A stretch of 64,000 nt of DNA, taken from a virus. Its lineage: Duplodnaviria > Heunggongvirae > Uroviricota > Caudoviricetes. The DNA is taken from IMG/VR virus record IMGVR_UViG_3300029708_000226. The stretch is one strand, 5' to 3'. The notes beneath the pieces were generated by a model. The model ran no database searches. It saw nothing but the letters and a program-made list of their open reading frames with translations, and had not been told where the DNA came from. A program made the translations under genes and the position numbers. Below are positions 3,844 to 63,168 of the stretch, piece after piece (the first letter of the stretch is position 1; each line of letters starts with the position of its first letter).

Positions 3844-3916
3844 ATCGATTCTCCTTTCTTTTTAAATCTTCTCTTAATTAATATGACAGAAAGATTGAAA
3901 GAACGGAAATCTACAC

Positions 3917-3944
3917 AAAAAGAGTCTCTTCGGAGGCTCTTTTT
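3917..3944 (-). terminator. Rho-independent terminator
   Basis: AAAAAGAGTCTC-TTCG-GAGGCTCTTTTT hairpin with A/T tails. Confidence 0.7.
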
Positions 3945-4103
3945 GTGGACTCTGAGAATACAGATATACCCGCCTCATAATACGGCAGCCAAAGGAAAAT
4001 CAAATCAGAAAATCTATATGATTATAAATAAAAGAGTCTCATTTTATAAATAAGACTCTTTTAACATTTTGCTTTTATTCAGTTAGTTCGTTATCTCTAA
4101 TAA

Positions 4104-5072
4104 TCATTCAATTGTTGTATCAGATGCTGTCGATCCACCATTCTCGCCTGAATCAGTATTAGAATCTTCCAAATCTGCATTTGTGCTTTCTGAATTGCCA
4201 GTATTTTCTGTATTTGCTCCAGAATCGGGATTTGTTACCCAATCCGGCAGAGACGGAAGAGTCGGTTCAGAATGATCAACCAATTCTTCTCCACACCTGC
4301 TACACCATCCGCTTCCATTATCAGAATGGCCTAAACCAGAGATCCCTCCACTGTTGATTACAGCTCCGCACAGATCACAGGTTTCTTCCCACCAACCACC
4401 AGATGTGCAGGTGGGTTCCGTTGTGGTATGTCTGCTTATACTTCCATGTCCCGTCTGAGGATAATAATCTTTTCCAAGATATTCCCCACAAAGATTACAA
4501 TACAATTCTCCGTATCCGTCATGCTGGCAGTTAGCTTCTACGACAGTTACGCTTCTGCAGGATGTATGAGCACACGCAGGCTTAGGTGTTGCAGTTGGCT
4601 GTGGAGTTGTTGCCGTAGGTTTTGTTGTAGGCTTAGGTGTTGTTGTTGCGGTTGCAGTAGGTTTTGTTGTAGCGCTGGGCTTCGGGGTCGCAGTTGCTCC
4701 TGTTTTCGTGTTTGAAACAGTTGTTGCACTACCTGTTTTCCCAGTGCTATTTGAAGCTGTTGTTGTCTTCGGAGTTGCTGTAGGATTTACTGTCGTTACA
4801 GGTGCTGATGTTTCCTTTGGATTTTCTGACGTCTTAGGAGCTTCAGTCGTTGTAACAGCAGTTGTTGCTTGCATGGAATCTACAGTTTCCGCAGTATTAT
4901 CCAGCTTATTTTCCTTGGTTTCCTCAAAATTACTTTCTTCAGTTGTCTCAGTGGTTTCAACGACCGTTTCAGGAATCGCTGTCTCCGTTGCTTTTGTAGT
5001 CTTATTCCCACAAGCTGTCATGGATACTACCATGATTCCTGCGAGGATAGTTGTTAAAAATCTTTTTCTCAT
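4104..5072 (-). CDS. Lipoprotein with Thr/Pro-rich stalk and CxxC/His repeats
   Basis: Lipobox SMTA-C; TPKP repeats; H...EPTCT..G...CDLCG repeats. Confidence 0.8.
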   Translation of the reverse strand: MRKRFLTTILAGIMVVSMTACGNKTTKATETAIPETVVETTETTEESNFEETKENKLDNTAETVDSMQATTAVTTTEAPKTSENPKETSAPVTTVNPTATPKTTTASNSTGKTGSATTVSNTKTGATATPKPSATTKPTATATTTPKPTTKPTATTPQPTATPKPACAHTSCRSVTVVEANCQHDGYGELYCNLCGEYLGKDYYPQTGHGSISRHTTTEPTCTSGGWWEETCDLCGAVINSGGISGLGHSDNGSGWCSRCGEELVDHSEPTLPSLPDWVTNPDSGANTENTGNSESTNADLEDSNTDSGENGGSTASDTTIE

Positions 5073-5218
5073 TTGGATTCTCCTTTGATATATGTTAAGT
5101 TGTTTTGTTTTAACTGATAAGGCTATTATAACATATATTTAGAGAAACACAAAATTCTGCACAGAAATTTTGAATTTCATCCAGCAAATATATATGAGAG
5201 AATACAAATTTCTGCACA

Positions 5219-5368
5219 GTTTCGATTCACGCCCCCTCGAAGGGGAGATTTAGATTGAGGTTACCAAAGATATTTCAGCATGTTTTCAATTCACGCCTCT
5301 TTGTGATGAGCGACCAGCTTAACGCTGTCACGGGCATATTTCAATTCACGTTCCACGCAGGAAGCGAT
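5219..5368 (-). CRISPR. Degenerate type I-C-like CRISPR mini-array (3 repeats, spacers 33 and 23 nt)
   Basis: Repeats 5219-5249 GTTTCGATTCACGCCCCCTCGAAGGGGAGAT, 5283-5314 TTTTCAATTCACGCCTCTTTGTGATGAGCGAC, 5338-5368 ATTTCAATTCACGTTCCACGCAGGAAGCGAT resemble the reverse complement of I-C repeats (GTCGC...GTGGATTGAAAT); cas3 relic 1.3 kb away. Confidence 0.75.
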
Positions 5369-5388
5369 GGCGACGCATAATACGCAAT

Positions 5389-5556
5389 TTACTTTATCGA
5401 TTCATCCTCTTCTGTTCCTTTCATTTCCTTTTCAGGCGTAATTTCCAATTCATTGTCATCATCCTCAAAAAAAGGGACGTGAACTGGACCAAATAATATA
5501 CACCAAACAATAAGGACGAGCAATATAGCGATTATTAAAATGATTTTTGAAAGCAT
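5389..5556 (-). CDS. Small single-pass membrane protein
   Basis: AAAGGAG RBS before ATG 5556 (MLSKIILIIAILLVLIVWCILF); acidic tail. Confidence 0.65.
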   Translation of the reverse strand: MLSKIILIIAILLVLIVWCILFGPVHVPFFEDDDNELEITPEKEMKGTEEDESIK

Positions 5557-5740: not shown

Positions 5741-5788
5741 AATTATTATGACAGAATTTTGTGTTCCGTACAGATTTCTGCACAGAAA
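5741..5788 (-). promoter_or_regulatory. Example of element-specific promoter: TCTGTCATAATAAT plus upstream palindrome TTTCTGTGCAGAAA
   Basis: One of 31 copies of the motif; palindrome 5775-5788 lies 24 bp from the CATAAT hexamer. Confidence 0.75.
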
Positions 5789-5889: not shown

Positions 5890-6168
5890 TTAATTAGTTA
5901 GATAAACCGATGTAATGTTGGCAGATCCACCGCTTGAACTGCCATTATATGTACCAGCCATAACAGCTAATAATAATTGCTGCTCATATTTCTTGACCTT
6001 ATTACCGTCAAAGAATAACTTTTTCAGCTGTATGCTATCTATTACAGTACTTAAGGCTGTGAGAGTAATACCATTTGTCGAAATTTCCTTGCATTACTCG
6101 GAAAGCTGGTAAGCAGACAGGCTGCAGCTAAAACCAAGGCTGTGAATTTATATCTACGTAATATCATA
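5890..6168 (-). pseudogene. Frameshifted fragment of a secreted protein
   Basis: MILRRYKFTALVLAAACLLTSFPSNA signal peptide, then frameshift to EISTNGITLTALST...SVYLTN*; own promoter motif at 6198. Confidence 0.5.
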
Positions 6169-6257
6169 AGATAAATTCTCTTTTCTAATATTAATATGAA
6201 AGATTTTTAGATATAACAAAACCGAAATCATAAGACTCCGGTTTCTTTCTCTTTTTT

Positions 6258-6333: not shown

Positions 6334-6606
6334 TTATTTTAAATAGTTTTGTTTCGTGATTCTTGCCGAATAATTTATCTTTTTGCCGCATGTCGGGCAA
6401 AAGCGATGATATTTTGCGAATGATTCAACATCAAATTCGGCAACCAAATCGCTGCTTCTGTCCCAATAGTCACACTTCGGTATTTGCCCAAGTACACCAG
6501 GACCTCCGCCAACGCCTTCCGGGTCACATTCACTACAAAAAGCATATACGCCCTCGATTTCTTCGCTGAATGGTTTTTTATCAATTCTTAATACAATTCC
6601 TGCCAT
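6334..6606 (-). CDS. Small Zn-finger-like hypothetical protein
   Basis: CSEC and CPTCG motifs; GGAGG RBS; promoter motif at 6645. Confidence 0.7.
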   Translation of the reverse strand: MAGIVLRIDKKPFSEEIEGVYAFCSECDPEGVGGGPGVLGQIPKCDYWDRSSDLVAEFDVESFAKYHRFCPTCGKKINYSARITKQNYLK

Positions 6607-6666
6607 GTTATTTTTCCTCCTTTTGTCTTTTGTAAAATTAATATGAAAGAAAATAAAATGAAAATG

Positions 6667-7658
6667 TCAGACGTCTTCTGTTAATATTCCCGTTTTCGCA
6701 TCATAACGTGTCACATCCTTCAAATACGCTATTCCGTCGTACTCCCCGACAACGTCTTCCTCATACATCTTTTTGAGCTCCGTATAAGTCACCTGCGCCG
6801 TATATTTGAAGATTTTGTCGATATTTTTTAATTGCCCTTCTTTTATTTGTTGCAACATTTCAGCGCTGTTTTTATCCTGCGGAATAAATACACTGTACTG
6901 CCCCGGGGCATCGATCATCTTAAAAACATCCTCGGCGCATTCTTTCGAAGTCAAGATCCGTTCCCGCTTCCATCATCGGCGTGGAAATTACAATGATTTG
7001 CTCTTTCCCGGGATTTTTAATTTTTCCCGGATCTCTTCCATGGCTTTTTGTCTGTCATTCGCCGTCTGATATGTAGAAAGATAATATACCTGCGTATTTT
7101 TCTGTTTTAGGTATTCAAAATACATTTTCAGTGCACTTCTCTTCCCGTTCGTGATAATAAGAAGAGATTTCTTTCCTTTCGCACATTGAATCAGATCGCT
7201 GCCGCTGCAATTTTAATATATTTGTAGCGGCAATTATAAAATTCCGGAAATAAGAACTTATCCGGGACCATATCCCTGATATCCAGCCCCGTTTGCACAT
7301 ATTCATTGAATAGTGGCTGAATATCCGGCATAACGGCAGATAAAAGGAAAGATATGCTTCCGCAGTTATGACATAGGAAATCGACTGCCTGTAAGCATGG
7401 TAGCAGTAGCGGCACCGGGAGCTTTTATATTTCGTCAAATACGAGAATGCTGTCTTCCATATTATGCAGTTTCCGGAGAGATTTCTTTTTATTACCGCAT
7501 ACCGAATCAAAGAACTTTGCCGCCGTTGTGATAATAAACGGCGCATTCCAGTTTTCGAGTGCATCTTCTTTTAATGATCCGCTTTTCTCTTCTGCCATGC
7601 TATATGTGGACTGGTGCCTCAAAATCAATGCCAACAACAACGATTCAAACATAACCAT
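6667..7658 (-). pseudogene. cas3: Heavily deleted, frameshifted type I-C cas3 helicase relic
   Basis: ENWNAPFIITT...LRKLHNMEDSILVFDE, LPCLQAV, YYLST...RQKAMEEIR, VISTPMMEAGTDLDF and C-terminal YDAKTG segments in several frames; HD domain and Walker A missing. Confidence 0.85.
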
Positions 7659-7865
7659 GTTTTTCTCTCCTTTCTGTCATAAGAGGATACTACTATTATA
7701 ACAGAAACAGCGGATTTAGAATATTTCTGTACAGAAATTTATATTCCCGTTTTTTGTTAACGTCGGCGGATACTGTAATTTTGAACAATGCGTCATCTTC
7801 TGCATAAAGAAAACCGGAATCACAAAACTCCGGTTTCTTTCTCCTTTTTAATTTTCTTAATTAAC

Positions 7866-9619: not shown

Positions 9620-10010
9620 ATTTTCCTCCGCTTTTCTATTTAGTAACATTAATATGAAAGAAAACTTTGATATAAAATTATAAATGAATACAATAATATC
9701 AAGTCAAAAACTTCTGACTTTGATACCTATAGATCACTTCGCTCTACGTACTCCCATAATCCTGCTCAATATTAGCATAACGTTAGATTATCATGTAGCT
9801 TTTATCTTATATGGGGGCTGGTCCTACTATAAAGAAACTCATGTGAGCTTAAACCTTTTGTCCACAGCATTATATAATTAATTTCTGTGCAGAAAATTTA
9901 TCAACATAGTAACTCACGATATACTATATATAAAAAATAAACGATTTTCTTCTCCAAAAAAAGAAAAGTGTGTTATAATTGGTCTCATTGGTAAACGGTG
10001 GAGGCATCGA

Positions 10011-12157: not shown

Positions 12158-12323
12158 AAATCCTCATCTTTTATTATTATGAAAGAATTTGTTTTCGAAT
12201 AATTCATATCAAAATATTGTTTATATAATTAATATGAAAGAAAGCGGATCTGTGGCATTTTTCTGCACAAAACTTTCTTTACGGATAATTGCAAAAGAGA
12301 AACCCGCAAAAAGCGGGTTTCTT

Positions 12324-15892: not shown

Positions 15893-16076
15893 GATATTAT
15901 CCTCCATTTTTCTCTTTGATGCCATTAATATGACAGAAAAGTATATCTGGAATACAAAAGGCATCCTTTGCGGATGCCTTAAAATATTTTTATATTTCGC
16001 CATAAAATTACATTCTTTATAGTATGTAGATGCTGCGGTTTTTACAGAGAACAAGCGTCCTTTCGGACGCTTGTTT

Positions 16077-17644: not shown

Positions 17645-17743
17645 TTATCTTCCTCCATTTTTCTTTGATTTGTAATACTATTATGAAAGAAAAACACAGA
17701 ATAAAAAATGCGCCGGATATTGACCGGCGCATTACGTTTAGCA

Positions 17744-19522: not shown

Positions 19523-19627
19523 TTGAATAATCTCCTTCTTTCTTTGTTTTTTTGATATAATTAATATGACAGATAATAGAGGACAAAAGAAAAGCCGGAT
19601 TGATCCGGCATTTTCTTAAATATTTGA

Positions 19628-20896: not shown

Positions 20897-21001
20897 TTTG
20901 TACTTCCTCCTTTTTGATATCTCCATTTTTCTGATTTCTTCATTAATATGACAGATATAAGATGGTAAAAGAAAACGCCGGCGCAAACCGACGTTTCAAT
21001 T

Positions 21002-21187: not shown

Positions 21188-21258
21188 TCGTTTTTCCTCC
21201 GTTTCTCTTAACCGCACATAATATGACAGAAAAATATGGAGAAAAGATTGTTTGAACC

Positions 21259-21516: not shown

Positions 21517-21971
21517 AATTACCTCCAAAAAATATTTTATATAATTATTATGTCAGATAAAGTAATACATAATAAAAGTCCCGAACCAGACGGTTACGGG
21601 ACTCTTATTTCAATCTTATATCCAGCCTTCTTTCAACTGCTTTTTGTTTTTCTTGCAATCAGGGCATAATTGAAGATCCTTTGTAAAATCCAGTCATTTT
21701 TATAAACTTAATCCAAATACAATACGCGCATTTTGACAATTGGTATCTTTCACCAGATTCCATTTGTTTGTCACAGGATTCAGATATCAGCACCCATCAA
21801 TCATTTCTCCTTTCTTACATTATCTGTTCTGGATTTTACTTCATAGCATCCATGTACATTCGGAAAGCCCTTTCAGCAGCAACTGTCTTGATTTGAATTT
21901 CTGCATAAAATTTCATCTGCCGAAATATTCCGTCTATGTCCCGTCTATAGTCAAAGACTTAGCTGGGGTGA

Positions 21972-22346: not shown

Positions 22347-22663
22347 AATTTTCTCCTTCTTTCTTTGTCTGGTGCTATTATTATGAGTGAAAAAGTAAAT
22401 AAAATAATTCTTATACAGTTACAGACCATACGTTCGATTAGTTGTTCTCAAGATATTTTTCCGTCCGTATCCCGTCAATTTCCCTCCCGGTATCGTTTGC
22501 GGAAGTAGCAGTGGAATGATTTTTGATCCAGCATTATTACGTTCGCGAATAAAAACTGTGAAATAAATGATAAATGGTGAGGATATGAAGTATATGCGTT
22601 TGGGGCAAAAACGGCAGACGAATGGAATATTTCGGGAACCAGACGGTTCCCGAACTTCTTTCA

Positions 22664-23668: not shown

Positions 23669-23874
23669 TTATTGCTGTCCTCCTTTTATCTTAGATATCC
23701 TTATTATGACAGATTTCTGTATTTGAAAGACGCCACTCATAATCGTAAATGTGTTCGATTAATTGATTTTTTGTATGTTTCCGTTCGTATTATATTTATT
23801 ATCGATATAGTATCGTTACGAAGTAGTAGCGAAAGAAATCCGGAGCCAGACGGCCCCGGATTTCTTTTTGTTCA

Positions 23875-25998: not shown

Positions 25999-26409
25999 GA
26001 AAATTACCCCTGAAATCGTTCATTTTACATAAAAGCCACAACGCAGCGATACGACATTTTTATTATAAAACGCCAGAAACCCTTACAAATACTGGATTTT
26101 ATTTATAATTTCCGCCTTCCGCTTTTATATATAATAGCGGCAAAAACCGCTATTTTATTTCTATATATGGAATTTTATTTTAAAATGCAATTTTCTCTGA
26201 TTTTTCTGATTCAGATACTAAAAAAAGCGTCCATTTCGGCTATTTTTATGGTTTAAAGAAGCCTTTTTCGCCATTTTGAGAGCCATCTAATCTTTTTGTT
26301 TTCTTATTTTTATCGAACATACATTCTTTTTAAATTCCATAACGGAAAAATCTTTTCGATACAGTTTTCTTTCATAATAATGGCACACAAATGAAGGAGG
26401 TATATCGTA

Positions 26410-28751: not shown

Positions 28752-29054
28752 ATCTACGTACCTCTGAGCTAAATTACATTTCTTTATATAATTATTATGA
28801 TAGATAAGTCAAAAACACGCAAATTTCTGCACAAAAATATCCTTTGGAAAAGAAGCAGAAACATTTTCCATATATGGATTTTGAGCAAATGCTTTAGAAT
28901 TGACATAATGGATCATGGCAATACGGGTTGTGTACATTTATAATTTAAGCGCGGGTCTGGCGAAAACGGCGCTTTGACGGAATTGGTTTTTAGCAGACAC
29001 GCTGGATGAATTTGTAAGAATGAAATAATTCCACAAAGAATATAAATATATTTG

Positions 29055-29115: not shown

Positions 29116-29336
29116 GTGGGAATAATAATCGCCAAGTCTTATAATTTTTATCAAAAGCAATATTCTTTTCGCAACTTCGAAAAGATGCGAACACATATTT
29201 GTATAAAAATACTCTCCCATTTGCAGTTATATGTTATAATATGAGTTGAAATCATTCATAATAAGTATATGAGGATAAAATATTCATTAGATAAAATCGC
29301 AAATATAATTAAAAAATTTGGAAGGAGACTCTATTT

Positions 29337-29712: not shown

Positions 29713-32700
29713 TTAAGGCGCTGGTGAAATATAAAAACAACTATCGTAATAATCTCTGTGGCGAAGGAATACGTTTCCGACACCTTTTACTGTGGAGCAA
29801 TCGATGGACCAGGTCTGATAAGTTCCATCATATTCAAATTCACCGATATATAAAAGTGCGTGATTTCCGTTCGGATCATAATGCACTATGATGTCTCCAG
29901 GCAAATTCTTTGAAGAATCAAATTTTCCATTCAGCATAATTCGAAATCCATCTGTTGTATATATGCCACCCAATTCATCAATCCACAAATTAGAAGTAAA
30001 ACCGGAGCAATCTGACAAATAACAAGGGCCGCTCTTGCTTATTAAACAAGGTCCCTCTAAAGGACAGTTGTGATGCGTTTGGCTATACCCTATTTTTCCT
30101 ACATAATTTAATCCTCTTTCTACAACACTTAATCGTTCTTCTGACAGACCAGGATAGTTTTCTCTAATCTGTTTCATAATCTCCTGCGTATCGGCAGATG
30201 TTAATGCCTGTCCGCCAAGCGTCGTCGTAAGATCAAAACCATACAGATCTTCCCAGTCCATGTTGTATTTAAGAAGTGTTAATTCAATATTCTCTTCGGT
30301 CCAGCCTTCCCAATCTTCTCTTTCATTAGGATGTGTACATGCGGCATCAATATCAAAAATATCCTGCGCTGTCTTGAATACATTTGAATCATTGAGAACG
30401 AATTTATTGCTATCCTTGTGGATAAACGCTCCATCTTCTACTTTTCCGGCAATCATTACACCGGTCTCTTCGGCACCAACTTCTGCATCTGTAAATCCGT
30501 ATATTACACCGGTTATTTTTGCCTTCAGATGACCTCCGCAATAACGCCCATGATGATCTCCCACGCATTCGTGAGTCACATGATAAGTGCGAGATTCAAC
30601 ATCTGTTGCCTGATAAGGATTTAATGCTATGTGCCCTATTTCCGGGTGTCCGGGTACATCAATTACCCACTCCGGATCAATATGCGTTTTGGTCTCTCCG
30701 ACAACCTCTGTAGTGAGAACAAAATATCCTGCATCATTCCATGAAAAACCTGTTACGTATTCTTTATCACCAGTCAAACTCTTAACAGCATCGGAAATTC
30801 CACTTTCGCTTGGCTCCGAATAATCTTCAATTTCGTCTGATTTACTGTCTTGAAGTTCAGTTTTCCAACAAGCAGCGTTATCTGAGTTATAAATATTTCC
30901 AAATCCAGCAACGCTATCTGCAAAGCAATATTCTGTATTTATGATATTTCCGGATTCATCTTTATCAAATTCCATATTGTTTTTTCTTAATGGATATACG
31001 CCGCCGGCTGTATGGAGATTTCCGTCTTTGTCTTTTACAGCTATGCCATTTTTATCGTAATAAAAATTCTCGTAAATCTGACAACCGCCTAAATCATAAT
31101 CGGGACACTGTGTTACTTTTACGGATGTGTTGTTTTCACCATCGACGATCGTTGTGTCCGGATCAAAAGAATCTTTCGTTACTTTGGTCGGTAAAATGAC
31201 GTACTGAAGATCAATGATCTCCTGATGAGACATATTGAATAGATCCTGCGCATAAGCAATCATGCTGTTCGAAGCCCATGATTTTATATCTCCATTAATT
31301 TTTTTATTGGATGCCGCAAATGTAGCTCCGGACTGTTTTGCATTTGCACTTTCACTTCCGTCTACAGCTTGTCCGTCATCGTGAGTATCCTCTGCTTCTG
31401 TACTGAACATTGTGTAAATATCTGCCATACAGATAATTTCCTTAATGTTACTGGTTCTTGCTGACCCATCTTTTGTTTTGTAAATCAGCTCTACACCACC
31501 GTTTATATTGTTCATAAATGACGCTGTATTGTCGTTTTCGAGATCAAAATTACCGAACGGATTTGCAGTAAATCCGGATAAATCATTCCATTTTACATTA
31601 TGCTGTCCCCAGAAAATTCTTGGAGCACCGCTTTCCGGCACATATTCTGCCGCGGTTTTATAAGTGGAGCCGTATTTTAAATTATAATCAGTAAGGTCCA
31701 CGCCTTCCGTATCATTAAGCAGACTATCAGTCCATTTAGTTTCCATTTCCTGCAAAGAATGCATTGTTTTATCCATTATTGGATCACCGGTGCTGTCTTC
31801 GTCATCTGTGGTTTCAAAGCCAAGAATGAAATCGATCGGAGCAGATATGATGACAACTGCTGCACCCATTATAAGAAAAGAGCCTCCAAGAACATAAATT
31901 AGTGTTTTTTTAATATATGCTTTTGCAAGAGAAACTGCCCCAATTAAACTAAAAACTGATTTAAACACATTACCCAGTATTTTTGTTGTTCTTGCGACAG
32001 CCTTGCTAAGATTGCCAACCGTCCTTCCAATGAAACTATTCGTTCTTAAAAAACCAGGAGCAAAACGATTCCATTTTCCTGCCAAGGAGGCAAATCTTGC
32101 CTGGCGGGCATTTCTTCTGGCTTTTTGCCTATCTTCTCTCTTTTTCTTTTCATTGGTTTTCTTTTTCTCTTTTTTAGAATCCTTTTTATCTTTCTTTTCC
32201 CGATGATGATTTTTTAAATCATCTATTTTGTCGCCAATCTTTTTTGCTCCGGAATCTATTTTTCTGTATCCTTTTCCAAACGCAGTATCTCTCAAGAGCC
32301 TTGTATTGGCACCAAAACCAATTAAGCGACCGGACCATTTACCAAGCTTGCCGATAACACGTCCAGTTGTTACCGCCATCAGCCATGCAGCTTTTGCGGT
32401 CGATCGTACTGTTTGGACAGTTTGTTTGATATTCATGTATCCGGCGAGAACCTGACTGTCCTGTCCAAGTTTATGTGCAATCATAGAGCGAAGAGTTTTT
32501 CCTGTACTCACCGCACCTTCTGTGGATTTTCTGCCTGTTCTATCTCTTTTGGCAAATTGATGGATTTGTTCTCCAATAAGCTTCATTTCGGCTTTAGAAA
32601 TACTGCTGATTCCTAAAGCACGGGCTATTTCACTATAATCATTACCTTTTCTTGCGCGGCGATACAATCTGTCAAATTTCGTTAAATCCCATACACCGCT

Positions 32701-34770: not shown

Positions 34771-34771
34771 A

Positions 34772-35938
34772 TTATCTTACCTCCTCGATGGAATATTTTT
34801 TTAACAAATCTTTCTTCTGTACCGCCATCCTTTCGCGATATTCATACAAAGAATTGATCCTGTCTGAAAAAGTCCTGATGATTTTATCAACGCGCTTGAC
34901 ATCACATACCTTAAGCAGCTCTGCGCGAACAATTTCCGGCATCAGTTTTAGATTAACGAAGTCTATATTATCCAACTTTTTCGTCAGTTTTAATTGATCT
35001 TCGTGATAATCGCAAAATGGTTTGGAGAAATTATCTACCGTATAATTGCACTCGATTGGCTCATCGAACCACAAAGAATTACCATTATCGAAAATCGGAG
35101 CAGGACCTAAATATTCTCCCGTCGTCGCATTCCTAAGAAAACCGAAATTTCCTAAATGTCTATCTGTGTTATTGATGATGTAATCGAATGCGATCATGTT
35201 ATCAAGAAACTCTTTAACGTTATGCATTCCGAGTTCTTTGCAAACGTATGTGAGCCTAATGTATCTTGCCTCCTGCGGGTGTCCTTTAGGAATCAAATAA
35301 GAAGCCGGGACAAACTCCTGATTATCTTTCAGAAAGTTTTCGCATACGCTCGCCGGCTTATCTCCTACGAGTCCCAAAAAATAAGGAACCGCATTCAATA
35401 CAGGAAAACACTGTGCGACTTTTGAACATGCAATTTCGTTATATGGTTCTTGAAAAAACGGTGCTCTCCCGAGCTTAAACAGATAATCCATGTCGTTTAT
35501 TCTTTTCCAGGCCTTTTCCGTAATGCCATTTGTGGTTAAGTCCGGAGAAATAAAATCATTGCCGTAAATTTCATTTTTTAACAGCAGATTTCCGACAGAT
35601 TCCGAATAACCGTTTGCGCGGAAATCAACATCTTCCCATTTAACCGGATCTTCTTCTGTTTTTATCCAGTAACAGTCCGTTAAATTCACACAATGACATG
35701 ATATGGACAATTCAAATGAACTGTTCTTTCCTGTAATTTCATACAGCTTGTCTATATGAGGCCTGCTTTGTGAAATGCATCTCTTTTGCAACCAGTCTTT
35801 TAACTGTTTTCCATCCGGATCCTGCATATTGTAAGGAAGCAGTTCTGGCGTAAATATTTCGCGCATTCGCACTACGTTATTTTTAGAAAGATTGAATGAT
35901 AAAATTGGATCATTCTTTTTAAAAAGCAAATAATCCAT
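34772..35938 (-). CDS. HipA-like (CtkA-type) kinase domain protein
   Basis: TDCYWIK, TTNG..EKAW, LFK, NE, DYIINNTDRHLGNFG, APIFDNGNSL. Confidence 0.85.
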   Translation of the reverse strand: MDYLLFKKNDPILSFNLSKNNVVRMREIFTPELLPYNMQDPDGKQLKDWLQKRCISQSRPHIDKLYEITGKNSSFELSISCHCVNLTDCYWIKTEEDPVKWEDVDFRANGYSESVGNLLLKNEIYGNDFISPDLTTNGITEKAWKRINDMDYLFKLGRAPFFQEPYNEIACSKVAQCFPVLNAVPYFLGLVGDKPASVCENFLKDNQEFVPASYLIPKGHPQEARYIRLTYVCKELGMHNVKEFLDNMIAFDYIINNTDRHLGNFGFLRNATTGEYLGPAPIFDNGNSLWFDEPIECNYTVDNFSKPFCDYHEDQLKLTKKLDNIDFVNLKLMPEIVRAELLKVCDVKRVDKIIRTFSDRINSLYEYRERMAVQKKDLLKKYSIEEVR

Positions 35939-36050
35939 GGTTTTTCCTTTCTGAAATTAATATTCTTCGCTACTATTATTATGAAAGATTCTTGATACGA
36001 ACGTTTTATGTAAAAAAGCGCCCGAATAAGGGGCGCTTTCGTGATAAATT

Positions 36051-36317
36051 CTAAAACATGAATTCTGTTACAGGAACCGGAGGTACGGTGTTGAATCCAT
36101 TTGCTACATTCAACATCTTTGTTACCTTGTCTTCCGTCAGCTCCACTCCGGATACTGCTGGAGTCAGATAAGAATAAAAATAAGATGTACCTTCTTTGGT
36201 GTTTTCCACCGGTATTCCGATAAAATACGGCAGTTTGTTGCTCTTACAGAATTCTTCTACTGCAGCAACTCGCTTAGCAAGCTCTGCATCCGTTAATTTC
36301 AATACTGTCTCATTCAT
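36051..36317 (-). CDS. Small hypothetical protein, third gene of par operon
   Basis: AAGGAG RBS, 12 bp after previous stop. Confidence 0.7.
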   Translation of the reverse strand: MNETVLKLTDAELAKRVAAVEEFCKSNKLPYFIGIPVENTKEGTSYFYSYLTPAVSGVELTEDKVTKMLNVANGFNTVPPVPVTEFMF

Positions 36318-36329
36318 GTTACTCTCCTT

Positions 36330-37049
36330 TTATTGTCCGAAATTCATTGCCTGTTCCAAAGCGCCGAAGATGTTGAATCCGGAAGATTTTTCTGTCTGCG
36401 CAGATGTTATATTATTATTTTCCTGCGGCGCGGCCGGTGTTGAAACAAATGAATTATTGTAATTGGTTTTTGGCATTGTATCTTCGATTTCCGATATTCC
36501 TGGAATATTTACTGTTTCGACAGATACTTTTTCCAAAATGTCTGCGTTTTCTTCCGTATTTATTTGTTGTTCTTTAAAGAGGCTCTGCACAGTTTTTCTA
36601 GCACTTTTTTCGTTTCTAGCGGCGGCTATGCGCTTTGTCTTATTTTCAATTCCATCAACTACTGCCAATGTTGCCTTTTCTGAAGTACGAAAATAACTTT
36701 CAAGCTGGCTTTCTTCCACTCTTGATCTCAGAAGATTTTTAATGAAGCTGTTCATCTGTCTTTTGTATACGGATCGCAAAAGCTTTATCACATCGGCATC
36801 TTCTTTGTTATCGAAAGTGAATCTTATTTTTAGAGATCCTTTCGGTGTAATATTTGTCTGTGTTTTTACAATCGGAATCTGAGATTTTCTTTTTCGTGCA
36901 TAATCCCTCAATACCGTTTTGAGCACTTTAGAAAATTCTCTGCTGCCTGTCCCCTCGCAACTGCAAAGGGACAAGTAATACATCATAAGGTCATGGTCGT
37001 GACGGGAATAAATACGGACATAGAATGTTGTTTTATTAGCCATAGGCAC
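36330..37049 (-). CDS. Putative ParR-like adaptor / DNA-binding protein
   Basis: Directly downstream of ParM; two RHH-like beta-alpha-alpha segments and a low-complexity tail. Confidence 0.55.
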   Translation of the reverse strand: MPMANKTTFYVRIYSRHDHDLMMYYLSLCSCEGTGSREFSKVLKTVLRDYARKRKSQIPIVKTQTNITPKGSLKIRFTFDNKEDADVIKLLRSVYKRQMNSFIKNLLRSRVEESQLESYFRTSEKATLAVVDGIENKTKRIAAARNEKSARKTVQSLFKEQQINTEENADILEKVSVETVNIPGISEIEDTMPKTNYNNSFVSTPAAPQENNNITSAQTEKSSGFNIFGALEQAMNFGQ

Positions 37050-37054
37050 ACTCC

Positions 37055-38242
37055 TTATCCAATATTGATCCGGTACATGTAGTAACCTCTGACATTCGCA
37101 AAAATATAAGAAATGTCATCGTTTCTGTTACAAGGAATGATATTGAGAGTTTCAAAGCCGGATAATTTTTCCTTAAAATAAGGATACCATGCAGCGCCGG
37201 TTCCTCCGGAAAGTGTAAGGTAATCCACTTCGCTGAAATAATTATATACTTCCACCAGCTTCGAAATCGCCATATCACACACTTCCATGCTGGAAGCTTC
37301 CAGTAAATCAGCAAAGTCAACCGGGTACGATCTCATATTCTTCCGATCCAGTACCTTTACTTCCCCTGTTTCGAGATAATTCTGCATAGCGGGGATTGTT
37401 ACCGTAACACCGTATTTTTGATGAATTTTTTCAGCAGTGCGATTGAGTACTTCCAGCATACTCAGTTCCTCGAAAGTCTGGCAGTCTGCCGGGTTGATCT
37501 CTCCGCCTTTGATATATGCGGTATCTCCTGTTTTGAAACCGGGATCGAATACAAGGATCCTTGAACGGAAAATCGCTTCAGAATCAAGTGTCTGAATACC
37601 GTTCTTGTCCACAACCAGGGAAATCAGAGCTCCCATCGGCTGCTGCATTACAAAGATGTCATTCTCCGTCAGCGTAAATTCATAATGTCTCCAGTCTTCA
37701 CGCCCCATTTTGAGATCAAAGCTGTAATTATCTGCGAACACTTCCTTAATATATCTTGCGTCATCGAGCATATATGCGGAAGGAAGTCCAGTCTGCACGA
37801 CGATTCTCTTTCCTTCTGGGGATCCGTAAGAGTTGCTCTGAAGTGCCATCGCCAGACCAACGCGGGCAGCGATTTTAAATGTTTCACTGTAATAATGATT
37901 CCTTCCGAACAAAGTCGGATCATTGTCGCTTGCGGTTTCAATGGAAAGCATCTTCTCTGCTTTTTCACCTACAGCGTAGATCTCACCGTTTTCATCACGG
38001 TACAGAATATCTGTGTCCAAAGGTTTTGCGAGTGCTACCGCATTCTTTGGCAACTTTTTTGCAAATTTAGGAAAGGTAAACAGAGCGTTCTGGCTCATTC
38101 CTTTTACGGAAGAATATCCGATATCGAGACCGATTACCCACTGATCCTGTCTTCTGCTGGGATTCTGCCGGATTGCCGGTCTCTGTCCGTTTAAGGTCTG
38201 TGACTGAATGATGGTCCGTGTCTTAAAAGCTTTTGTATCCAT
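37055..38242 (-). CDS. parM: ParM/StbA actin-like partition ATPase
   Basis: IGLDIGYSSVK, TGLP, QPMGA, FDPGFKTGD, LSGGTG, ANVRGY. Confidence 0.9.
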   Translation of the reverse strand: MDTKAFKTRTIIQSQTLNGQRPAIRQNPSRRQDQWVIGLDIGYSSVKGMSQNALFTFPKFAKKLPKNAVALAKPLDTDILYRDENGEIYAVGEKAEKMLSIETASDNDPTLFGRNHYYSETFKIAARVGLAMALQSNSYGSPEGKRIVVQTGLPSAYMLDDARYIKEVFADNYSFDLKMGREDWRHYEFTLTENDIFVMQQPMGALISLVVDKNGIQTLDSEAIFRSRILVFDPGFKTGDTAYIKGGEINPADCQTFEELSMLEVLNRTAEKIHQKYGVTVTIPAMQNYLETGEVKVLDRKNMRSYPVDFADLLEASSMEVCDMAISKLVEVYNYFSEVDYLTLSGGTGAAWYPYFKEKLSGFETLNIIPCNRNDDISYIFANVRGYYMYRINIG

Positions 38243-38325
38243 ATTTTTGTCCTTTCTTGGCTAGTTTTCTTTATCTAGTATTATTATGACACATTTTCCG
38301 AAAAACTGATTTTTCTGCACAGAAA

Positions 38326-40074
38326 TTATAACTGGTATACTGTTTTGAAAATGAGTTGCTTCTTTTCGTCGTCCCATCCGGTAATTTCAACAATTTCCCT
38401 AATCTTAAAATGCGACATAAATACGATAGTTTTCAGTTCTTTCAGCATATACATAGCCTGCTCTTTGGAATATTTGCTTTCATAAGTAACGTAATCCGCA
38501 AGTTTATCTATCGCATCTTTCGCAGACGGCGCATGGACGGTACAGCTGCAGATGTGGCCAGTAGAAGCAGCGTTTAAGAAATACCATGCCTCTCCGCCCT
38601 TAATCTCACCGATAATGAAGTGATCCAGATCAGTAAGCAATCCGTTTGTGGCCTCTTCCTTTAATCCATAAGCCGGGCGGCCATTTTTGCTGTTCGTGAT
38701 ATGCTGAAACATAAAATCGGGTTGTTTATTGGAGAACAATTCCTCGCTTTCCTGAATTACAAGACCGGACATGTTGTAATGAATCTGATCGAGCAATACA
38801 TTAAGGAGTGTTGTCTTACCGGAAGCACCCTTACCGCAGACAACAATGCCGGTGGTATTTATTTTATCGATAAGGTACTCTGCTACTTTTCTTGACATAA
38901 CACCTTTCTCAATCAGATCATCGACGGTATATTTATTTTTCCGTATCTTTCTGATATGCAGATAAGGAAAAGGTGAGGAATTGACATACTGTGTAGCGAT
39001 ATTCATTCTCAGGATAAATTTTAGACTTGTATATTTATCTGTAAATACGTGGTAAGCTTCATTCGCAAGGTCCAAACCATATCTCATTGCCAAGCTATTA
39101 ATATAGTTGATATAGTCATTTGCGTTAATGAATCCTACATTAGAAGTCATTCTTTTTCCGTTTACTTTTACGCGGATATGCTTCGGATCAATAACCTTGA
39201 TATCACTGATTTCATCTGATTCGATCAGCTGATCAAGAACGTAATTTTTATAAACGGCACTGTAAACTTTATCGAGCAAGAGTTTCTTGTCTCTGTCTGT
39301 AATATTCTGATACAGACGCCTTGTAGTATCCTCTACGTTCTTCATGAAGTTTTCGGGAGTAATATCACCAACCTGCGCCTTAAAGTAAAGCGCTTTTTCG
39401 ACACCGGTCGTATAATAGGAAATGATATGCGAACACATCTGTGTAAACCGTTCATATCCGGCATCCGTAATCGTCTGGGCATCAAATCCGGCGGCGTCAT
39501 AAATCATTTCTTTATAATCTGAAACTTTGGGTTCGGGAACGTCCATTTGTGAAATCAAATCCACTTTTGCAACCGGCTCTGCTGATGCTCCAGAATCAGC
39601 GTAATCAGCTCTGTTGGTAATATTTGTGGAAAATGTATTTTCAAACGAAGCAAGAAAGGTATTTAATATATCCTGATGAATCTTATATCCTTCCTCATCC
39701 TTTGCAACCCAGTTGGAAGCTTTCAAAACTCTTCTTACCAGCGGAAAACACAATATTTCATACTTAAATAAATTATCGTTATTCAATCCTCGAATGGACA
39801 AAACATTCCCCTCTGAAAAAATTGTCTCGAAGAAATCTAAAATAAAATGATTGATTTTAATAAATTCGATATCTTCGCATAAAAATTCCAAAGAGAAAGT
39901 CAAAGCCTTAATATGGTCGTTGTCGATTCCAGGCTCCAGTTCGCGAAATCTGTCTTTAAAAAGATCCGCCCATTGATATCCGTTTTCTCCCGGAACGACA
40001 CACATGTAATTTCCTTCCGGTGTCGCAATATTATCTTCTTTCCATACTTTTACATTAAAATTTTTAATTTCCAT
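38326..40074 (-). CDS. CpaF/VirB11-family secretion ATPase with N-terminal extension
   Basis: ISDI, IRK, GKGASGKTT, IIGEIKGGEA, TGH...TVHAPS. Confidence 0.88.
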   Translation of the reverse strand: MEIKNFNVKVWKEDNIATPEGNYMCVVPGENGYQWADLFKDRFRELEPGIDNDHIKALTFSLEFLCEDIEFIKINHFILDFFETIFSEGNVLSIRGLNNDNLFKYEILCFPLVRRVLKASNWVAKDEEGYKIHQDILNTFLASFENTFSTNITNRADYADSGASAEPVAKVDLISQMDVPEPKVSDYKEMIYDAAGFDAQTITDAGYERFTQMCSHIISYYTTGVEKALYFKAQVGDITPENFMKNVEDTTRRLYQNITDRDKKLLLDKVYSAVYKNYVLDQLIESDEISDIKVIDPKHIRVKVNGKRMTSNVGFINANDYINYINSLAMRYGLDLANEAYHVFTDKYTSLKFILRMNIATQYVNSSPFPYLHIRKIRKNKYTVDDLIEKGVMSRKVAEYLIDKINTTGIVVCGKGASGKTTLLNVLLDQIHYNMSGLVIQESEELFSNKQPDFMFQHITNSKNGRPAYGLKEEATNGLLTDLDHFIIGEIKGGEAWYFLNAASTGHICSCTVHAPSAKDAIDKLADYVTYESKYSKEQAMYMLKELKTIVFMSHFKIREIVEITGWDDEKKQLIFKTVYQL

Positions 40075-40385
40075 ATTTTATCCTCCATAATTATTATGAA
40101 ATACAAAAAATAAAAACATCGAAAATTTCTGTGCAGAAATTTGCATTTCAAAATACTTCTGATATAATAAAGGTATGAATTGATTGATCAATTTCACTGT
40201 GCAGTATATTTTATAGGCGGCACCGAACAGCCCGGTTTTATGCGAAAATCTGCAGGTTTATCCGTAAAAAACAAATCACAATCTTATTTTGAAAATTATG
40301 ACGTTGATGGAGGACCTTATCCAAAACTAAAAAGGGAGTTTGTTCGTGAACAAATTGCATATTTTTAAGATAAGAAAAAGGCAGC

Positions 40386-43013: not shown

Positions 43014-43131
43014 ATATTTTTTATTCTCCTTTCAGCTAAATAAAAAAGAGATAAGCTCTCTCCTCATCTCTTAAATATCATAATTATTATGAAAGAAAAA
43101 GCCTGCCGTTTGATACACGGCAGGCGACTTC

Positions 43132-43818: not shown

Positions 43819-43913
43819 AGCGTTCTCCTTTTTATAAATTATATTTTGAAATACTACCCTCATAATTATTATGAAAGAAAGTGGAGCAAAACGCCCCGCC
43901 TTCTAATTGTACG

Positions 43914-46666: not shown

Positions 46667-46764
46667 GCGTTTCTCCTTTCTTTATGCCTATAATTATTAT
46701 GACAGAATTTGAAAAATAACATTTTTTCTGCACAGAAAAACAGGCGTCTTGCGACGCCTGTTAA

Positions 46765-50877: not shown

Positions 50878-50957
50878 TTCTCTTTTCCTCCCGATTTCTA
50901 GTTTCTATTAATATGAAAGAAAAGAAGGTTCAAAAAAAAGAGAGCCTCTCGACTCTC

Positions 50958-51173: not shown

Positions 51174-51263
51174 ACAATTCTCCTCGTGTTCGGTATATTT
51201 TTCCTTCAATATTATTATGAAAGAAATCTTTTTTGAACACAGAGAATAAATATTGCGACACAT

Positions 51264-53438: not shown

Positions 53439-53520
53439 GAATCTGCCTCCCTGTCTTTGGATGATATTATTATGACAGATTTGGCGGCTCTATAGAAATT
53501 TCTGCACAAAAAAGATGCCG

Positions 53521-54404: not shown

Positions 54405-54470
54405 AACTTACTCCTCACTATTATTATGAAAGTTTTTATTTAAAAAGGGAGCTTTTTAGCTCCCTTTCAA

Positions 54471-56584: not shown

Positions 56585-56685
56585 GTTAATTCTCCCTTAC
56601 TAGAAAAAGATTTATTTTCTTACATTATTATTATGATAGAACTTTGTTAAAAACGCAGAATTTTTAACTTCCGTCATTTTTACAT

Positions 56686-59986: not shown

Positions 59987-61025
59987 CTGTAGTTTCCTCC
60001 TGTACCTTCTCTTTTACGGAAAAACTCTCCATTTCGTCAGTTAAGTTATTTTTAACGGATACTGACAAAATGTGATCTTTGTACTCAATAATACTTTGAA
60101 AATTTCCTGCTGCCTGCACCCATTCCGGTTTTACCGAATCAAGGTGTTTGAATATGGAATTATCTGCTTTAGTATAATAAATACCATAAGTTTCTTCTTC
60201 GACCGTCTCTTCTTCTGGCATCTTTTCGGTTTTTGAACCGTTATCGGCATTAACGATTCCCTCATATACTTTTTGTATATCTGCATCTTCGGTATTCTGC
60301 TCTGCGTAAAATTCCTTAGCCATACTTTCGGTAACATCCGGCAAAACGGTATGATAATATTCCGAAATCTTACCATCACTATCATACTTCACATACAGTC
60401 TTTCTTTTTCGTTCTGCAATGCAAAAGTTTTATCTCCGAGATCTGCGAATTCGTACAACTCTTCTTCATAATTTTGCCCCCTGAAGTCTTCGCTCACGGA
60501 AGTAGACATCTGAAGCCAATCGTGAGAAGCATCGTAAACACAGTCCACATTCTTTTCTTTATATACATTAGTCCAGGAACGCCATGATTTATCGTGATAG
60601 GTTAAGCCAAATGTATAATGATTTGCGCCAACTTCACTTAAAGAAGCCAATGTGTATCCTGCCTCCGACAGCATAGTGGACATTGTCTCCTGTAAGGCCG
60701 ATACATCTACCCCACTTTGAAACAACTGCGTGTATCCGAGTAAATTTGAATTCATTGGAATAAATTTTAGATAATGGAATTCTTCATTGTTCCAATAGTC
60801 ATTAGGTTGTCCTTGAATGATCGTGTAATTGTGTTCATCGAGAATTGAAGTTGTATTCATTACATCCGTCTGTATTTTTGCCAGTCTGGAAAAAGCACCG
60901 TGCCAGTCATTTGGTGCAACAACCAGGGTATCTACAGCTTCTTCCTGCTGCTTATTTTGTCCACAGCCACACAACGCAGCGGTGAGTAACGAAACGCACG
61001 TAAAAAGTAAGATTTTGCTTTTCAT
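59943..61025 (-). CDS. Lipoprotein
   Basis: Lipobox LCG-C; AGGAGG RBS; promoter motif at 61060. Confidence 0.8.
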   Translation of the reverse strand: MKSKILLFTCVSLLTAALCGCGQNKQQEEAVDTLVVAPNDWHGAFSRLAKIQTDVMNTTSILDEHNYTIIQGQPNDYWNNEEFHYLKFIPMNSNLLGYTQLFQSGVDVSALQETMSTMLSEAGYTLASLSEVGANHYTFGLTYHDKSWRSWTNVYKEKNVDCVYDASHDWLQMSTSVSEDFRGQNYEEELYEFADLGDKTFALQNEKERLYVKYDSDGKISEYYHTVLPDVTESMAKEFYAEQNTEDADIQKVYEGIVNADNGSKTEKMPEEETVEEETYGIYYTKADNSIFKHLDSVKPEWVQAAGNFQSIIEYKDHILSVSVKNNLTDEMESFSVKEKVQEETTDETLQGLSGGGNPE

Positions 61026-61109
61026 ATAAATCCTCCTGTTCTTCCTCTATAATTATTATGAACGATTTCGTCAAAAAACAGGGACGCTTGACGCAATCCC
61101 TGTTTCCTG

Positions 61110-61550
61110 TTATTTATAACCCTTTAGCCAAAGTTTTTCTTCTTCTGTTAATTTGGATTTTTTAACTTTTTTAACCTTTTCTGTTTCCATTTGATGATAA
61201 ATCTTCAACTCATCTTCGGTGAGAATATCATTGATATCCCATGTCATTTCATAACAAAACGGACGGTTTCTGGGATTTAAAAAATTCTCAACAAAAACAG
61301 ATTTCAACCATTTTTCAAACGGCAATCCTCCAAAAATACTTAAGGAAGAACCGAATCCAAAGAGTAAAAACGGAACGGCCGGGAGATACAAAAGCAAAGA
61401 AATATAGGACCCGAATAATGCTCTTTGTATTGCTCTCGAAGCAAAAATGGAAGCCACGGCTAAAATGGAAAAAATAGCTTGTCTTAGTGTAAATGGACCG
61501 ATATCTTTTACCTGATATTCACGAATATCTTTATTGATGTATACTTGCAT
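61110..61550 (-). CDS. PrgI-family (VirB3-like) conjugation protein
   Basis: INKDIREY....IGPFTLRQ...G.PFEKW. Confidence 0.85.
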   Translation of the reverse strand: MQVYINKDIREYQVKDIGPFTLRQAIFSILAVASIFASRAIQRALFGSYISLLLYLPAVPFLLFGFGSSLSIFGGLPFEKWLKSVFVENFLNPRNRPFCYEMTWDINDILTEDELKIYHQMETEKVKKVKKSKLTEEEKLWLKGYK

Positions 61551-61565
61551 ATCTATCTCTCCTCT

Positions 61566-62621
61566 TTAAGACAGGAAATCATTTAAAATGGATTTTGATG
61601 CACTAAGCATGCCAACGGCTGCAAAGTTATATAAAGCTACATTAAGCAATCCACTTAAGTTTGTCATAGCTCCATCTACCAGACCTTTGGATCCACCATC
61701 CAAGATTGATGCATACATATTACTTGCCGAAAGCGTACCAGCGATCTGAACGACCAATAGCATCACAAATCCGTATAAGCAAATTCCAAAGAATTTTTTT
61801 ACGTATGATAAACCTCTCGAATGCGGACCAGACATTACAATATCTGGAATTGCAATACATAAAATTCCACCACGAATTATCAATTCGATTTTTCTGCTTG
61901 CCGCATGGAGTAATATCATAATATTAGGAATGGTGTTTGCCCCTTTTAAAAGAAGTGAGTAAACATATAAAGAAAGAGCTTTTGTGAAATGCTTTCCTTG
62001 ACCATTTGCAAAATAATCAGCTACAGCATTTACGTAATCAGCCCCGTCTTCTCCTTTTGTAAGAGCAATAGGGTTGTTGAGGAAGTAATCAATAAATGTA
62101 TTTCCTAATTGCATTGCTAACACAACTATTGTGGGGCCAAAATATATAAGTGCATCAACACAGACAAATTTCATGATTGTTGTGATCCAATATTTTATAT
62201 CAAGATCCCTTACTTTTCCCTGCATATCCTGCACTATTGTTAATAGAAAATAAAATAACAGCATACAATAGCCTATGGGTGAAAAATAATCCCAGATTTG
62301 AGCGATCATGTTCTTTTCAAGATCTGTGACGATAATAGCATCACGTGCAACGCTTAAACCGCCCGCATTCATAATATATGCTTCAGCGACGGTTTTCTGA
62401 AAACCGTCTTTCATTCCTTCATACCATGCTTTACCGTCAGCAACAGCGTCACCTAAAGACTCAAAAAGATCTTGAATACTATCAATAGCTTTTCCCCATT
62501 CTTTTACTTCTGTTGTAACTTCTTTCACGCCAGATTCTTCCGGTGTTTTTGCAAATGTGGTCATCGAACAACCCAATATCATTATGATCACAAGTGCTAA
62601 TCCTAATAATCGTTTTCTCAT
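61566..62621 (-). CDS. VirB6/TrbL-like polytopic T4SS protein
   Basis: Multi-TM; R.IEL..R......AIPD...YVKKF. Confidence 0.75.
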   Translation of the reverse strand: MRKRLLGLALVIIMILGCSMTTFAKTPEESGVKEVTTEVKEWGKAIDSIQDLFESLGDAVADGKAWYEGMKDGFQKTVAEAYIMNAGGLSVARDAIIVTDLEKNMIAQIWDYFSPIGYCMLLFYFLLTIVQDMQGKVRDLDIKYWITTIMKFVCVDALIYFGPTIVVLAMQLGNTFIDYFLNNPIALTKGEDGADYVNAVADYFANGQGKHFTKALSLYVYSLLLKGANTIPNIMILLHAASRKIELIIRGGILCIAIPDIVMSGPHSRGLSYVKKFFGICLYGFVMLLVVQIAGTLSASNMYASILDGGSKGLVDGAMTNLSGLLNVALYNFAAVGMLSASKSILNDFLS

Positions 62622-62678
62622 AAAGACCTCCTAAAATCCGAAAAAGATACCCCGGTATAATCCGGGGTATCACGATCG

Positions 62679-63038
62679 TTAGGCGAGAATACCCATGGCC
62701 TGTAACACGAACTTCATGCCGATCAGGATTGCGGCAACTGCAATGGTAGCAAATCCCTGCGCTCTCTTGTCAGGATTGCCGTTATCCTGCATGGACTGTG
62801 CAACGGAAATGATACCGAAGATCAGCATACCAATGCCGAGAATCTGCAATACAGTAAGAATCATACCAATTCCTTTACCTGCAATGGCAAATGGATCAAC
62901 TCCATTAAGGGCTCCCTGATTGACGGTTACTTCACTAAAAGCACGTCCGATTATCGGAGTCATTACTGCGGTTGCCATTGCTTCAACAGCCAACAGGACA
63001 TTCTGTGCCTTGTTTTTAAATAACGCGATTTTTTTCAT
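62679..63038 (-). CDS. VirB2/TrbC-like T4SS pilin-type membrane protein
   Basis: Leader plus two TM helices separated by a QDNGNPD loop; lies between VirD4 and VirB6. Confidence 0.65.
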   Translation of the reverse strand: MKKIALFKNKAQNVLLAVEAMATAVMTPIIGRAFSEVTVNQGALNGVDPFAIAGKGIGMILTVLQILGIGMLIFGIISVAQSMQDNGNPDKRAQGFATIAVAAILIGMKFVLQAMGILA

Positions 63039-63168
63039 AAACTTACCTCCTGAGTAAAGTTATTTTTTTCTCATTATTATTATGAGAGAAAAGTGTCATG
63101 AACGCAGAATATGCCGCGATCCATGTATTAACATCAAAAAAGACCCTGCATTGCTGCAGGATCTTTTC

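Follow-up and report, generated by a model that had tools for sequence, protein, structure and literature searches.

The closest described counterpart of the system reported here is SigN (ZpdN) of the Bacillus subtilis plasmid pBS32, a case in which a large Firmicute plasmid carries a sigma-70-type factor; the genes under its control, among them nucleotide and replication genes, lie largely on the plasmid itself, and the accessible part of that report also describes plasmid-encoded sigma factors as rare (PMC6751061). On the side of promoter recognition, the accessible portions of the relevant papers describe extended -10 promoters of the TGnTATAAT type, read by SigA, which combine a -10 box and an upstream flank with a weak or absent -35 (PMC2613000, PMC7438776), a Q437H substitution in E. 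coli sigma70 that suppresses a T-to-C change at -12 (PMC2613000), and a role of Q437 that is promoter-dependent (PMC3592454). The function of megaplasmids such as pCY360 of Butyrivibrio proteoclasticus (NC_014389) is described as largely unknown in the accessible part of the genome report (PMC2914790), where the sigma factor and promoters of pCY360 go unmentioned. Here we analyzed a 64,000-nucleotide stretch of DNA (IMG/VR virus record IMGVR_UViG_3300029708_000226, filed under Caudoviricetes; "the window" below) that, judged by its gene content, belongs to the pCY360-like family of clostridial conjugative megaplasmids. A short sequence recurs in front of most of its transcription units; this sequence is almost certainly a promoter, and it is probably read by a sigma factor that the element itself encodes.

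A first-pass annotation of the window had counted 31 copies of this private motif, 30 on the minus strand and one, at 26373, inverted in front of the mobV relaxase gene. All 30 minus-strand coordinates fall on the G that it had indicated. Exact copies of ATTAWTATGAMAGA number 18, 17 of them on the minus strand and one inverted at 26368-26381, and with up to two mismatches 29 of the 30 minus-strand sites and site 26373 fit (30 of the 31). Site 5196 fails, lacking the T at -7 and reading CATATA, and its gene is served instead by TGTTATAAT at 5133; a plus-strand copy at 29252-29265, upstream of gene 29337, had been overlooked. The working set (n = 31) is the earlier list minus 5196 plus 29257. 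At each retained site the next gene runs in the same direction as the motif, and at 29 of them the -12 base lies 24-80 nucleotides (nt) before the start codon, which bears out the earlier description of a motif that is oriented with its downstream gene, mostly at 20-80 bp. The start codon of site 5750 is 194 nt away, and site 6198 heads a frameshifted remnant. The claim that replication, partition, conjugation, pilus and cargo genes are served alike also holds, the motif standing ahead of parM, of the operons for pilus and transfer, and of the majority of the remaining units. The same annotation had assigned TGTTATAAT, a host-type extended -10, to the plus-strand genes at 10011 and 29337. It is present at both, and 29337 has the private motif as well. 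Promoter type is independent of strand, since two minus-strand genes (4104-5072 and 7425-7658) also use TGTTATAAT. The sites are as follows.

3877..3890, minus strand: private core before an open reading frame (ORF) of 1281+ amino acids (aa) ending at the window edge
5742..5755, minus strand: private core 194 nt before ORF 5389-5556, palindrome upstream
6190..6203, minus strand: private core before the frameshifted gene remnant
6637..6650, minus strand: private core before ORF 6334-6606
9648..9661, minus strand: private core before 9113-9619 (NADAR gene cluster)
12173..12186, minus strand: proximal private core before 11573-12157
12228..12241, minus strand: distal private core before 11573-12157, palindrome upstream
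15924..15937, minus strand: private core before DUF5688 gene 15020-15892
17677..17690, minus strand: private core before 17156-17644
19560..19573, minus strand: private core before 18953-19522
20942..20955, minus strand: private core before 20579-20896 (RadC cluster)
21217..21230, minus strand: private core before 21002-21187
21544..21557, minus strand: private core before 21259-21516
22377..22390, minus strand: private core before 21972-22346
23700..23713, minus strand: private core before DUF1848 gene 22913-23668
26368..26381, plus strand: private core before mobV relaxase 26410-27441
28791..28804, minus strand: private core before tyrosine recombinase 27717-28751, palindrome upstream
29252..29265, plus strand: private core, overlooked earlier, before 29337-29651
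35975..35988, minus strand: private core before HipA-like 34772-35938 and the 1685 aa gene
38280..38293, minus strand: private core before parM 37055-38242, palindrome upstream
40090..40103, minus strand: private core before secretion ATPase 38326-40074, palindrome upstream
43083..43096, minus strand: private core before nrdD 40860-43013, terminator hairpin adjoining upstream
43865..43878, minus strand: private core before 43132-43818
46693..46706, minus strand: private core before the topoisomerase operon, palindrome upstream
50907..50920, minus strand: private core before DNA polymerase III alpha 46765-50877
51211..51224, minus strand: private core before cold-shock gene 50958-51173
53466..53479, minus strand: private core before RecD2 helicase 51264-53438, palindrome upstream
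54420..54433, minus strand: private core before prepilin-peptidase-like 53784-54404
56627..56640, minus strand: private core before Flp-like pilin 56357-56584
61052..61065, minus strand: private core before 59943-61025 (pilus assembly operon)
63076..63089, minus strand: private core before 62679-63038 (transfer genes including prgI)
5125..5133, minus strand: host-type extended -10 TGTTATAAT before 4104-5072
7695..7703, minus strand: host-type TGTTATAAT, with the private TCT flank too, before 7425-7658
9971..9979, plus strand: host-type TGTTATAAT before 10011-10673
29232..29240, plus strand: host-type TGTTATAAT before 29337-29651

Three of the genes concerned deserve a separate remark. A DDE transposase of the DUF772 type (plus strand, 12460-14010) has a host-type TGGTATAAT at 12418 and no private motif. 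The frameshifted remnant at 5890-6170 (minus strand) resembles the start of gene 11573-12157 and still has a private promoter ahead of it, and the protein of 11573-12157 itself, behind its two tandem private promoters, has a signal-peptide-like start and a weak ATLF-family domain match.

Aligned with the C as -12, the 31 sites give the consensus TTTCTKT (-19 to -13), CATAWT (-12 to -7) and AAT, in which -12, -11, -10, -9, -7 and -6 are invariant; this includes the A at -11 and the T at -7 that characterize a sigma-70-type hexamer. The T at -12 and TG at -15/-14 of a host SigA extended -10 are not what is found, -12 being C throughout and G occupying -14 at 11 of the 31 sites. Six bases after -7, at the predicted +1, every site has a purine (A in 20), preceded at -1 by a pyrimidine in 27; given a purine share of 0.76 across +2 to +8, the chance of such a purine column is about 2.5e-4, for a pattern that was spotted after alignment. 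The -1/+1 step recurs in most related elements. In a sister lineage (65-89% protein identity) all 7 orthologous promoters are kept and only degenerate positions vary, with A/T swaps at -8 and A/G swaps at +1, and in the more distant locus L063 (42-50% protein identity) 4 of 4 are kept. No conserved -35 had been seen earlier, and we likewise found TTGAC and a SigG-type box at 0 of 31 sites and SigE-type and SigK-type boxes at one each, searching spacings of 15-19 nt. Terminator-like hairpins lie within 90 nt upstream at 17 of the 31 sites, compared with 2 of 93 shuffles, and 11 of the 17 end within 25 nt of -12 (a stricter scan retains 5 of 31), in agreement with the earlier remark that upstream terminators often occupy the -35 region. 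Read on the plus strand the motif could be taken for a start-codon context, a reading that was set aside as the sites are intergenic and face away from the gene.

The genes matched by Pfam in the window (VirD4, PrgI, Tad-like pilus genes, MobV, tyrosine recombinase, ParM, NrdD, topoisomerase, DnaE and RecD2) include no phage structural genes, and no Rfam family was matched. The best plasmid matches are pCY360 and pRUMAL01, at 38%, and the window shares with pCY360-like elements a syntenic parM block, VirD4, a Tad-like pilus, DnaE and a topoisomerase. That block lies here:

29713..40074, minus strand: backbone block (ATPase, parM, two partners, HipA-like, giant protein), syntenic with pCY360 and genome G010

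Contigs of up to 127 kb from human gut metagenomes carry near-identical loci. The ParM cluster of the window has 203 members, of which one is found on 272 contigs of up to 293 kb and another comes from Clostridium sp. AF34-10BH. A quick ParM tree places the window as sister to G010 and then G001, and the contigs that bear the relatives in G013 and G019 measure 0.46 and 1.1 Mb.

The first-pass annotation had invoked, as one option, a sigma factor encoded outside the window, and three observations support it indirectly: the -1/+1 signature, the conservation of the promoters in diverged relatives, and a sigma family on related elements. A sigma-70-type gene is present on pCY360, on pRUMAL01 and in the complete record G028. 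Among 27 genomes with a ParM relative, the ParM contig carries a member of the family in 14 and a different contig does so in 8, and where the ParM contig exceeds 100 kb the sigma gene is on that contig in 11 of 11 genomes. The family proteins are only about 20-30% identical to each other. Six of seven score above the cut-off of the generic sigma-70 model TIGR02937, and none of the seven reaches any listed cut-off for a named subfamily (RpoD, FliA, SigB/F/G, SigE/K). Profile searches match SigA, SigF and FliA chains, and the predicted fold (pLDDT 80) matches sigma chains in Foldseek at E 2e-7 with a low TM of about 0.4; by profile and fold, regions 2-4 of the sigma-70 superfamily are recognized in the relatives' protein. 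A profile search returned 808 representatives at E up to 1e-30, some of them possibly ordinary sigmas. In the best 150 representatives, reduced to 149 by dropping one multi-repeat protein, His stands at the position of Q437 in 114. The proteins of G010 and G001, the two nearest ParM relatives of the window, both have this His437 and group together with moderate support; in all genomes aligned, host SigA retains the canonical Q437.

The surroundings of the sigma gene hint at how it may be controlled. In the gap just upstream, a TATAAT without the private motif is found in 5 of 16 elements, and the private motif occurs in that gap or further upstream in 8 of 16 (both read from scores), which by analogy with SigN suggests a SigA-driven start followed by positive feedback. 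At 10 of 24 loci the sigma gene is directly preceded by an ORF of 57-89 aa with a common pattern, seven of which were aligned (examples are L076:2436-2669, L087:1076-1297 and L004:1940-2131); its protein, with no Pfam family and no Atlas match, is a candidate anti-sigma factor or co-factor. Two or more sigma-family genes occur in G007:C16, G019:C2, G002:C1 and G020, one of those in G007 being full-length and one 177 aa.

Most of the elements sampled have their own -10 dialect, usually with C at -12 and with the same -1/+1 step. The dialect reads AAAAATA-CATATT in G010, ACAGA-CATATT in G015 and G017, CATACT-AT in G013 and G016, CATTCT in G014 and TTC-CATAATT in G006; that of G001, TTTCT.T-CATATT, is nearest to the motif of the window and was found in 34 of 51 gaps on its ParM contig and 19 of 21 on its sigma contig. 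The dialects of pRUMAL01 and G007 have T at -12. For G022, G018, G019a, G011, G003 and the viral loci, all with few leaders, no clear motif emerged. Host stretches and the sigma-less plasmid pCY186 give TATAAT. Seed-free counts of CATAWT per leader within the same assembly or cell separate element from host in G015 (22 of 47 vs 12 of 113, p 1e-6) and G010 (55 of 121 vs 6 of 61, p 8e-7), and pCY360 from pCY186 of the same cell (23 of 55 vs 3 of 29, p 0.003). On the host contig of G013 the CATACT motif is not seen (0 of 43), nor does it occur over the initial 80 kb of the contig that carries the element (0 of 49). The latter contig (G013:C2, 458 kb) has host-type promoters in those initial 80 kb and the element dialect between 340 and 440 kb, and could be an integrated form or a chimeric assembly. 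With a recovered motif, elements whose sigma has His437 show C at -12 in 8 of 8 cases, and both T(-12) elements are without this His. Since every such relative pairs a factor of this kind with its own form of the signal, the motif is very likely a start signal read by a sigma factor of the element itself.

A second feature, overlooked earlier, is a TYTGYRCARA palindrome with ten intergenic copies in the window. Each copy is listed with the promoter it precedes and the distance of its centre from that promoter, measured at private promoters to the -12 base:

5156..5165: a TGTTATAAT -10, 30 nt
5777..5786: site 5750, 31 nt
7726..7735: the TGTTATAAT -10 at 7700, 30 nt
9884..9893: out of phase with any -10
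12262..12271: site 12236, 30 nt
28826..28835: site 28799, 31 nt
38314..38323: parM promoter, 30 nt
40128..40137: site 40098, 34 nt
46727..46736: site 46701, 30 nt
53501..53510: site 53474, 31 nt

The centre is 30-31 nt from -12 in 8 of the 10 copies and 34 nt in one, and the phased copies serve seven C-type and two TGTTATAAT promoters. As this spacing is common to both promoter types, CATAWT stands in the same register as a canonical -10. A spacing of exactly 30 nt recurs at 20 sites in G004 and 8 in pCY360 and is not clear in G010; of 151 family genomes, none has more than 4 palindromes at this spacing. Class II activators bind with their centre near -42.5, and the palindrome is likely a regulator site, with a repressor also conceivable. 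To our knowledge none of the CodY, Noc, LexA, CcpA, Rex and NrdR boxes fits it, and the genes common to G010, pCY360 and G004 contain no clear DNA-binding candidate, the palindrome-negative elements being partly sampled.

Such a regulator is at the centre of the rival that survives best, in which host SigA reads the motif with the help of a plasmid activator, for example the palindrome-binding protein, and the relatives' sigma serves only a sub-regulon. CATAAT is one base from TATAAT, TG at -15/-14 is present in those 11 of 31 sites, the palindrome serves TGTTATAAT promoters as well, and two related elements have T at -12. However, the palindrome accompanies only 7 of the 31 private promoters, C at -12 never varies, host SigA keeps Q437, and the spread of dialects goes far beyond what one host sigma could explain; we therefore consider this rival unlikely. 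Less likely still is that the motif is an operator or another DNA site, such as a repressor box or a cassette recombination site, in place of a -10 element. Several copies are near-palindromic across -12 to +1, and small cargo genes are arranged as terminator-motif-gene modules. Symmetry across the site is not kept, with no covariation of -8 and -4 and an excess of A at +1, so that a palindromic operator was rejected; the strict polarity towards the gene, the fixed -1/+1 step, the register to the palindrome shared with TGTTATAAT promoters, and the lack of another promoter-like site in most motif-bearing gaps all argue against this reading. A host sporulation-type sigma (SigG, SigE or SigK), which the first-pass annotation had kept as an option for CATA-type -10 boxes, is slightly less credible again. 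CATAWTA does resemble the SigG -10 box, but the -35 boxes of these factors are lacking as described above, motifs differ between elements, pCY186 has no such motif and uses TATAAT in the same cell as pCY360, and forespore-only expression of replication and partition genes would be implausible; moreover, the three matches at E<=1e-14 in G010, an incomplete metagenome-assembled genome, are the plasmid sigma, FliA and one unaligned RpoD-length protein. Chance or composition of AT-rich spacers is refuted, for although the core alone arises about 11 times per dinucleotide shuffle, the 18 exact copies compare with 0 in each of 100 shuffles, the full motif is several hundred-fold denser than in the G001 family (313 exact matches in a sample of 301 genomes, about 0.9 Gb), and it is kept in diverged relatives.

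Several points weigh against an element-encoded sigma as the reader of the motif. No sigma factor is among the Pfam matches of the window, and no part of its element carrying one was recovered: a palindrome-plus-motif scan of viral contigs gave 0 matches, a motif scan matched 120 loci, the 80 listed being single scattered matches, a VirD4 scan found only 37% relatives, and two protein searches with sigma alignments returned no candidate assignable to the element. A family sigma was not clearly found in 5 of the 27 genomes with a ParM relative, nor in G002 on a second contig with ParM, 146 kb long. The W433/W434 pair is missing from the family, so its activity is not assured. Nine C(-12) elements carry R, S, G, E or even Q (G009) at 437, which makes His437 a common solution and not a rule. 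An expectation-maximization search placed the motif in 28-31 of 42 gene-leading gaps, varying with width, and such a search tracks its seed, a C-type seed having yielded C-type motifs in controls. Across 17 elements, motif distance follows the distance of sigma regions 2.3-3.0 (rho 0.23, p 0.018) and not that of ParM (rho -0.05), a weak Mantel signal from five uncorrected tests on kin that are not independent, with p 0.07 for the whole sigma. RNA runs X19 and X20 hold 0.12-0.14 of the words, in short contigs only, which is not evidence of expression, and start sites are not callable from such contigs and scattered short pieces. The rarity of the motif elsewhere is that seen in the 301 G001-family genomes (at most 7 copies in each), the real host chromosome of the element lying outside all comparisons.

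In the mechanism we propose, the repeat would be a -10 or extended -10 promoter read by host RNA polymerase with a sigma-70-family factor presumably encoded elsewhere on the megaplasmid, transcription being predicted to start six bases after CATAWT. After entry, host SigA would transcribe the sigma gene from its TATAAT site, and the upstream private promoter would then amplify its expression. Region 2.4 of the factor, usually with His at the Q437 position, may prefer C at -12 and region 3.0 would read the element-specific flank, so that a -35 would be dispensable and a promoter could directly follow a terminator. Genes for replication, partition, the pilus and transfer, and cargo genes too, would depend on this one plasmid protein, and a putative dimeric regulator may bind the -42.5 palindrome at about a quarter of the private promoters. 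A wider picture, which we offer tentatively and with slightly more doubt than belief, is that this gut and rumen megaplasmid family governs its own transcription, each lineage having one -10-only dialect that co-evolves with a fast-diverging sigma and is largely orthogonal to the host and to other dialects, with the small partner protein and the -42.5 regulator as a second layer of control. Our results point to a large sigma family without a name on common gut megaplasmids, and we found no description of the family or the motif in a literature search whose coverage largely left aside subscription papers and supplements. If the proposal is right, maintenance and transfer would have a single gene as their master switch, with cargo silent in its absence, and the elements would provide a natural series of region 2.4/3.0 variants, each with a predicted cognate promoter, on which the -12 recognition rule could be tested and which could serve as orthogonal expression parts in Clostridia.

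Other features of the element were noted in passing. The HipA-like kinase gene is followed by one for a 1685 aa protein without a Pfam match (29713-35938), a pair conserved in pCY360, G010 and G001. An inverted-repeat-like stretch upstream of mobV (26330-26350), kept in the sister lineage and in L063, is likely a transfer origin. The genes of the two secretion ATPases have in common a stretch (38462-38631 and 58702-58871) of 72% identity, and in runs X1 and X3 a 66-base piece is identical at a second place, which suggests gene conversion. Like the window, G028 (L066; ParM-family, sigma, 199 kb, terminal repeats) is filed by IMG/VR as a virus, as are several VirD4-bearing contigs of 122-244 kb (L327-L335), G329 having an RpoD-like sigma.

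Phage T4 offers one comparison, in that a mobile genome redirects the host polymerase with its own sigma, gp55, whose late promoters consist of a -10 only. The same strategy is found with Firmicute phage sigma factors, in the accessible part of their description (10.1101/2021.11.12.468384). The window differs from these programmes in being part of a conjugative megaplasmid, in the regions 2, 3 and 4 kept by the relatives' sigma, and in a motif that covers maintenance genes and not a late class. Compared with TGnTATAAT promoters, its flank is TCTK and not TG, and its C at -12 is fixed; compared with the Q437H suppressor, whose His437 accommodates C at -12, the His437 of the plasmid sigmas is natural and stands in proteins without the W433/W434 pair. 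pCY360 is closer, having the syntenic block of ATPase, parM, HipA-like and giant genes, an annotated sigma-70 gene, C(-12) promoters and the same phased palindrome, yet the proteins are only 30-47% identical and its motif is looser. With SigN, whose expression combines a SigA-driven start with positive feedback (PMC6751061) of the kind suggested above for the relatives, the relatives of the window share a sigma gene on the same replicon. According to the accessible text of that report, however, SigN promoters have both -35 and -10 boxes, a consensus that the -10-only motif of the window does not match, and SigN itself is toxic, is under LexA control and does not switch on repN or alfAB, whereas the motif of the window heads parM, pilus, transfer and most other units and is set apart from SigN by this description. 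The window probably belongs to a private sigma-promoter system whose mode of operation resembles that of SigN on pBS32, with a factor of a different family.

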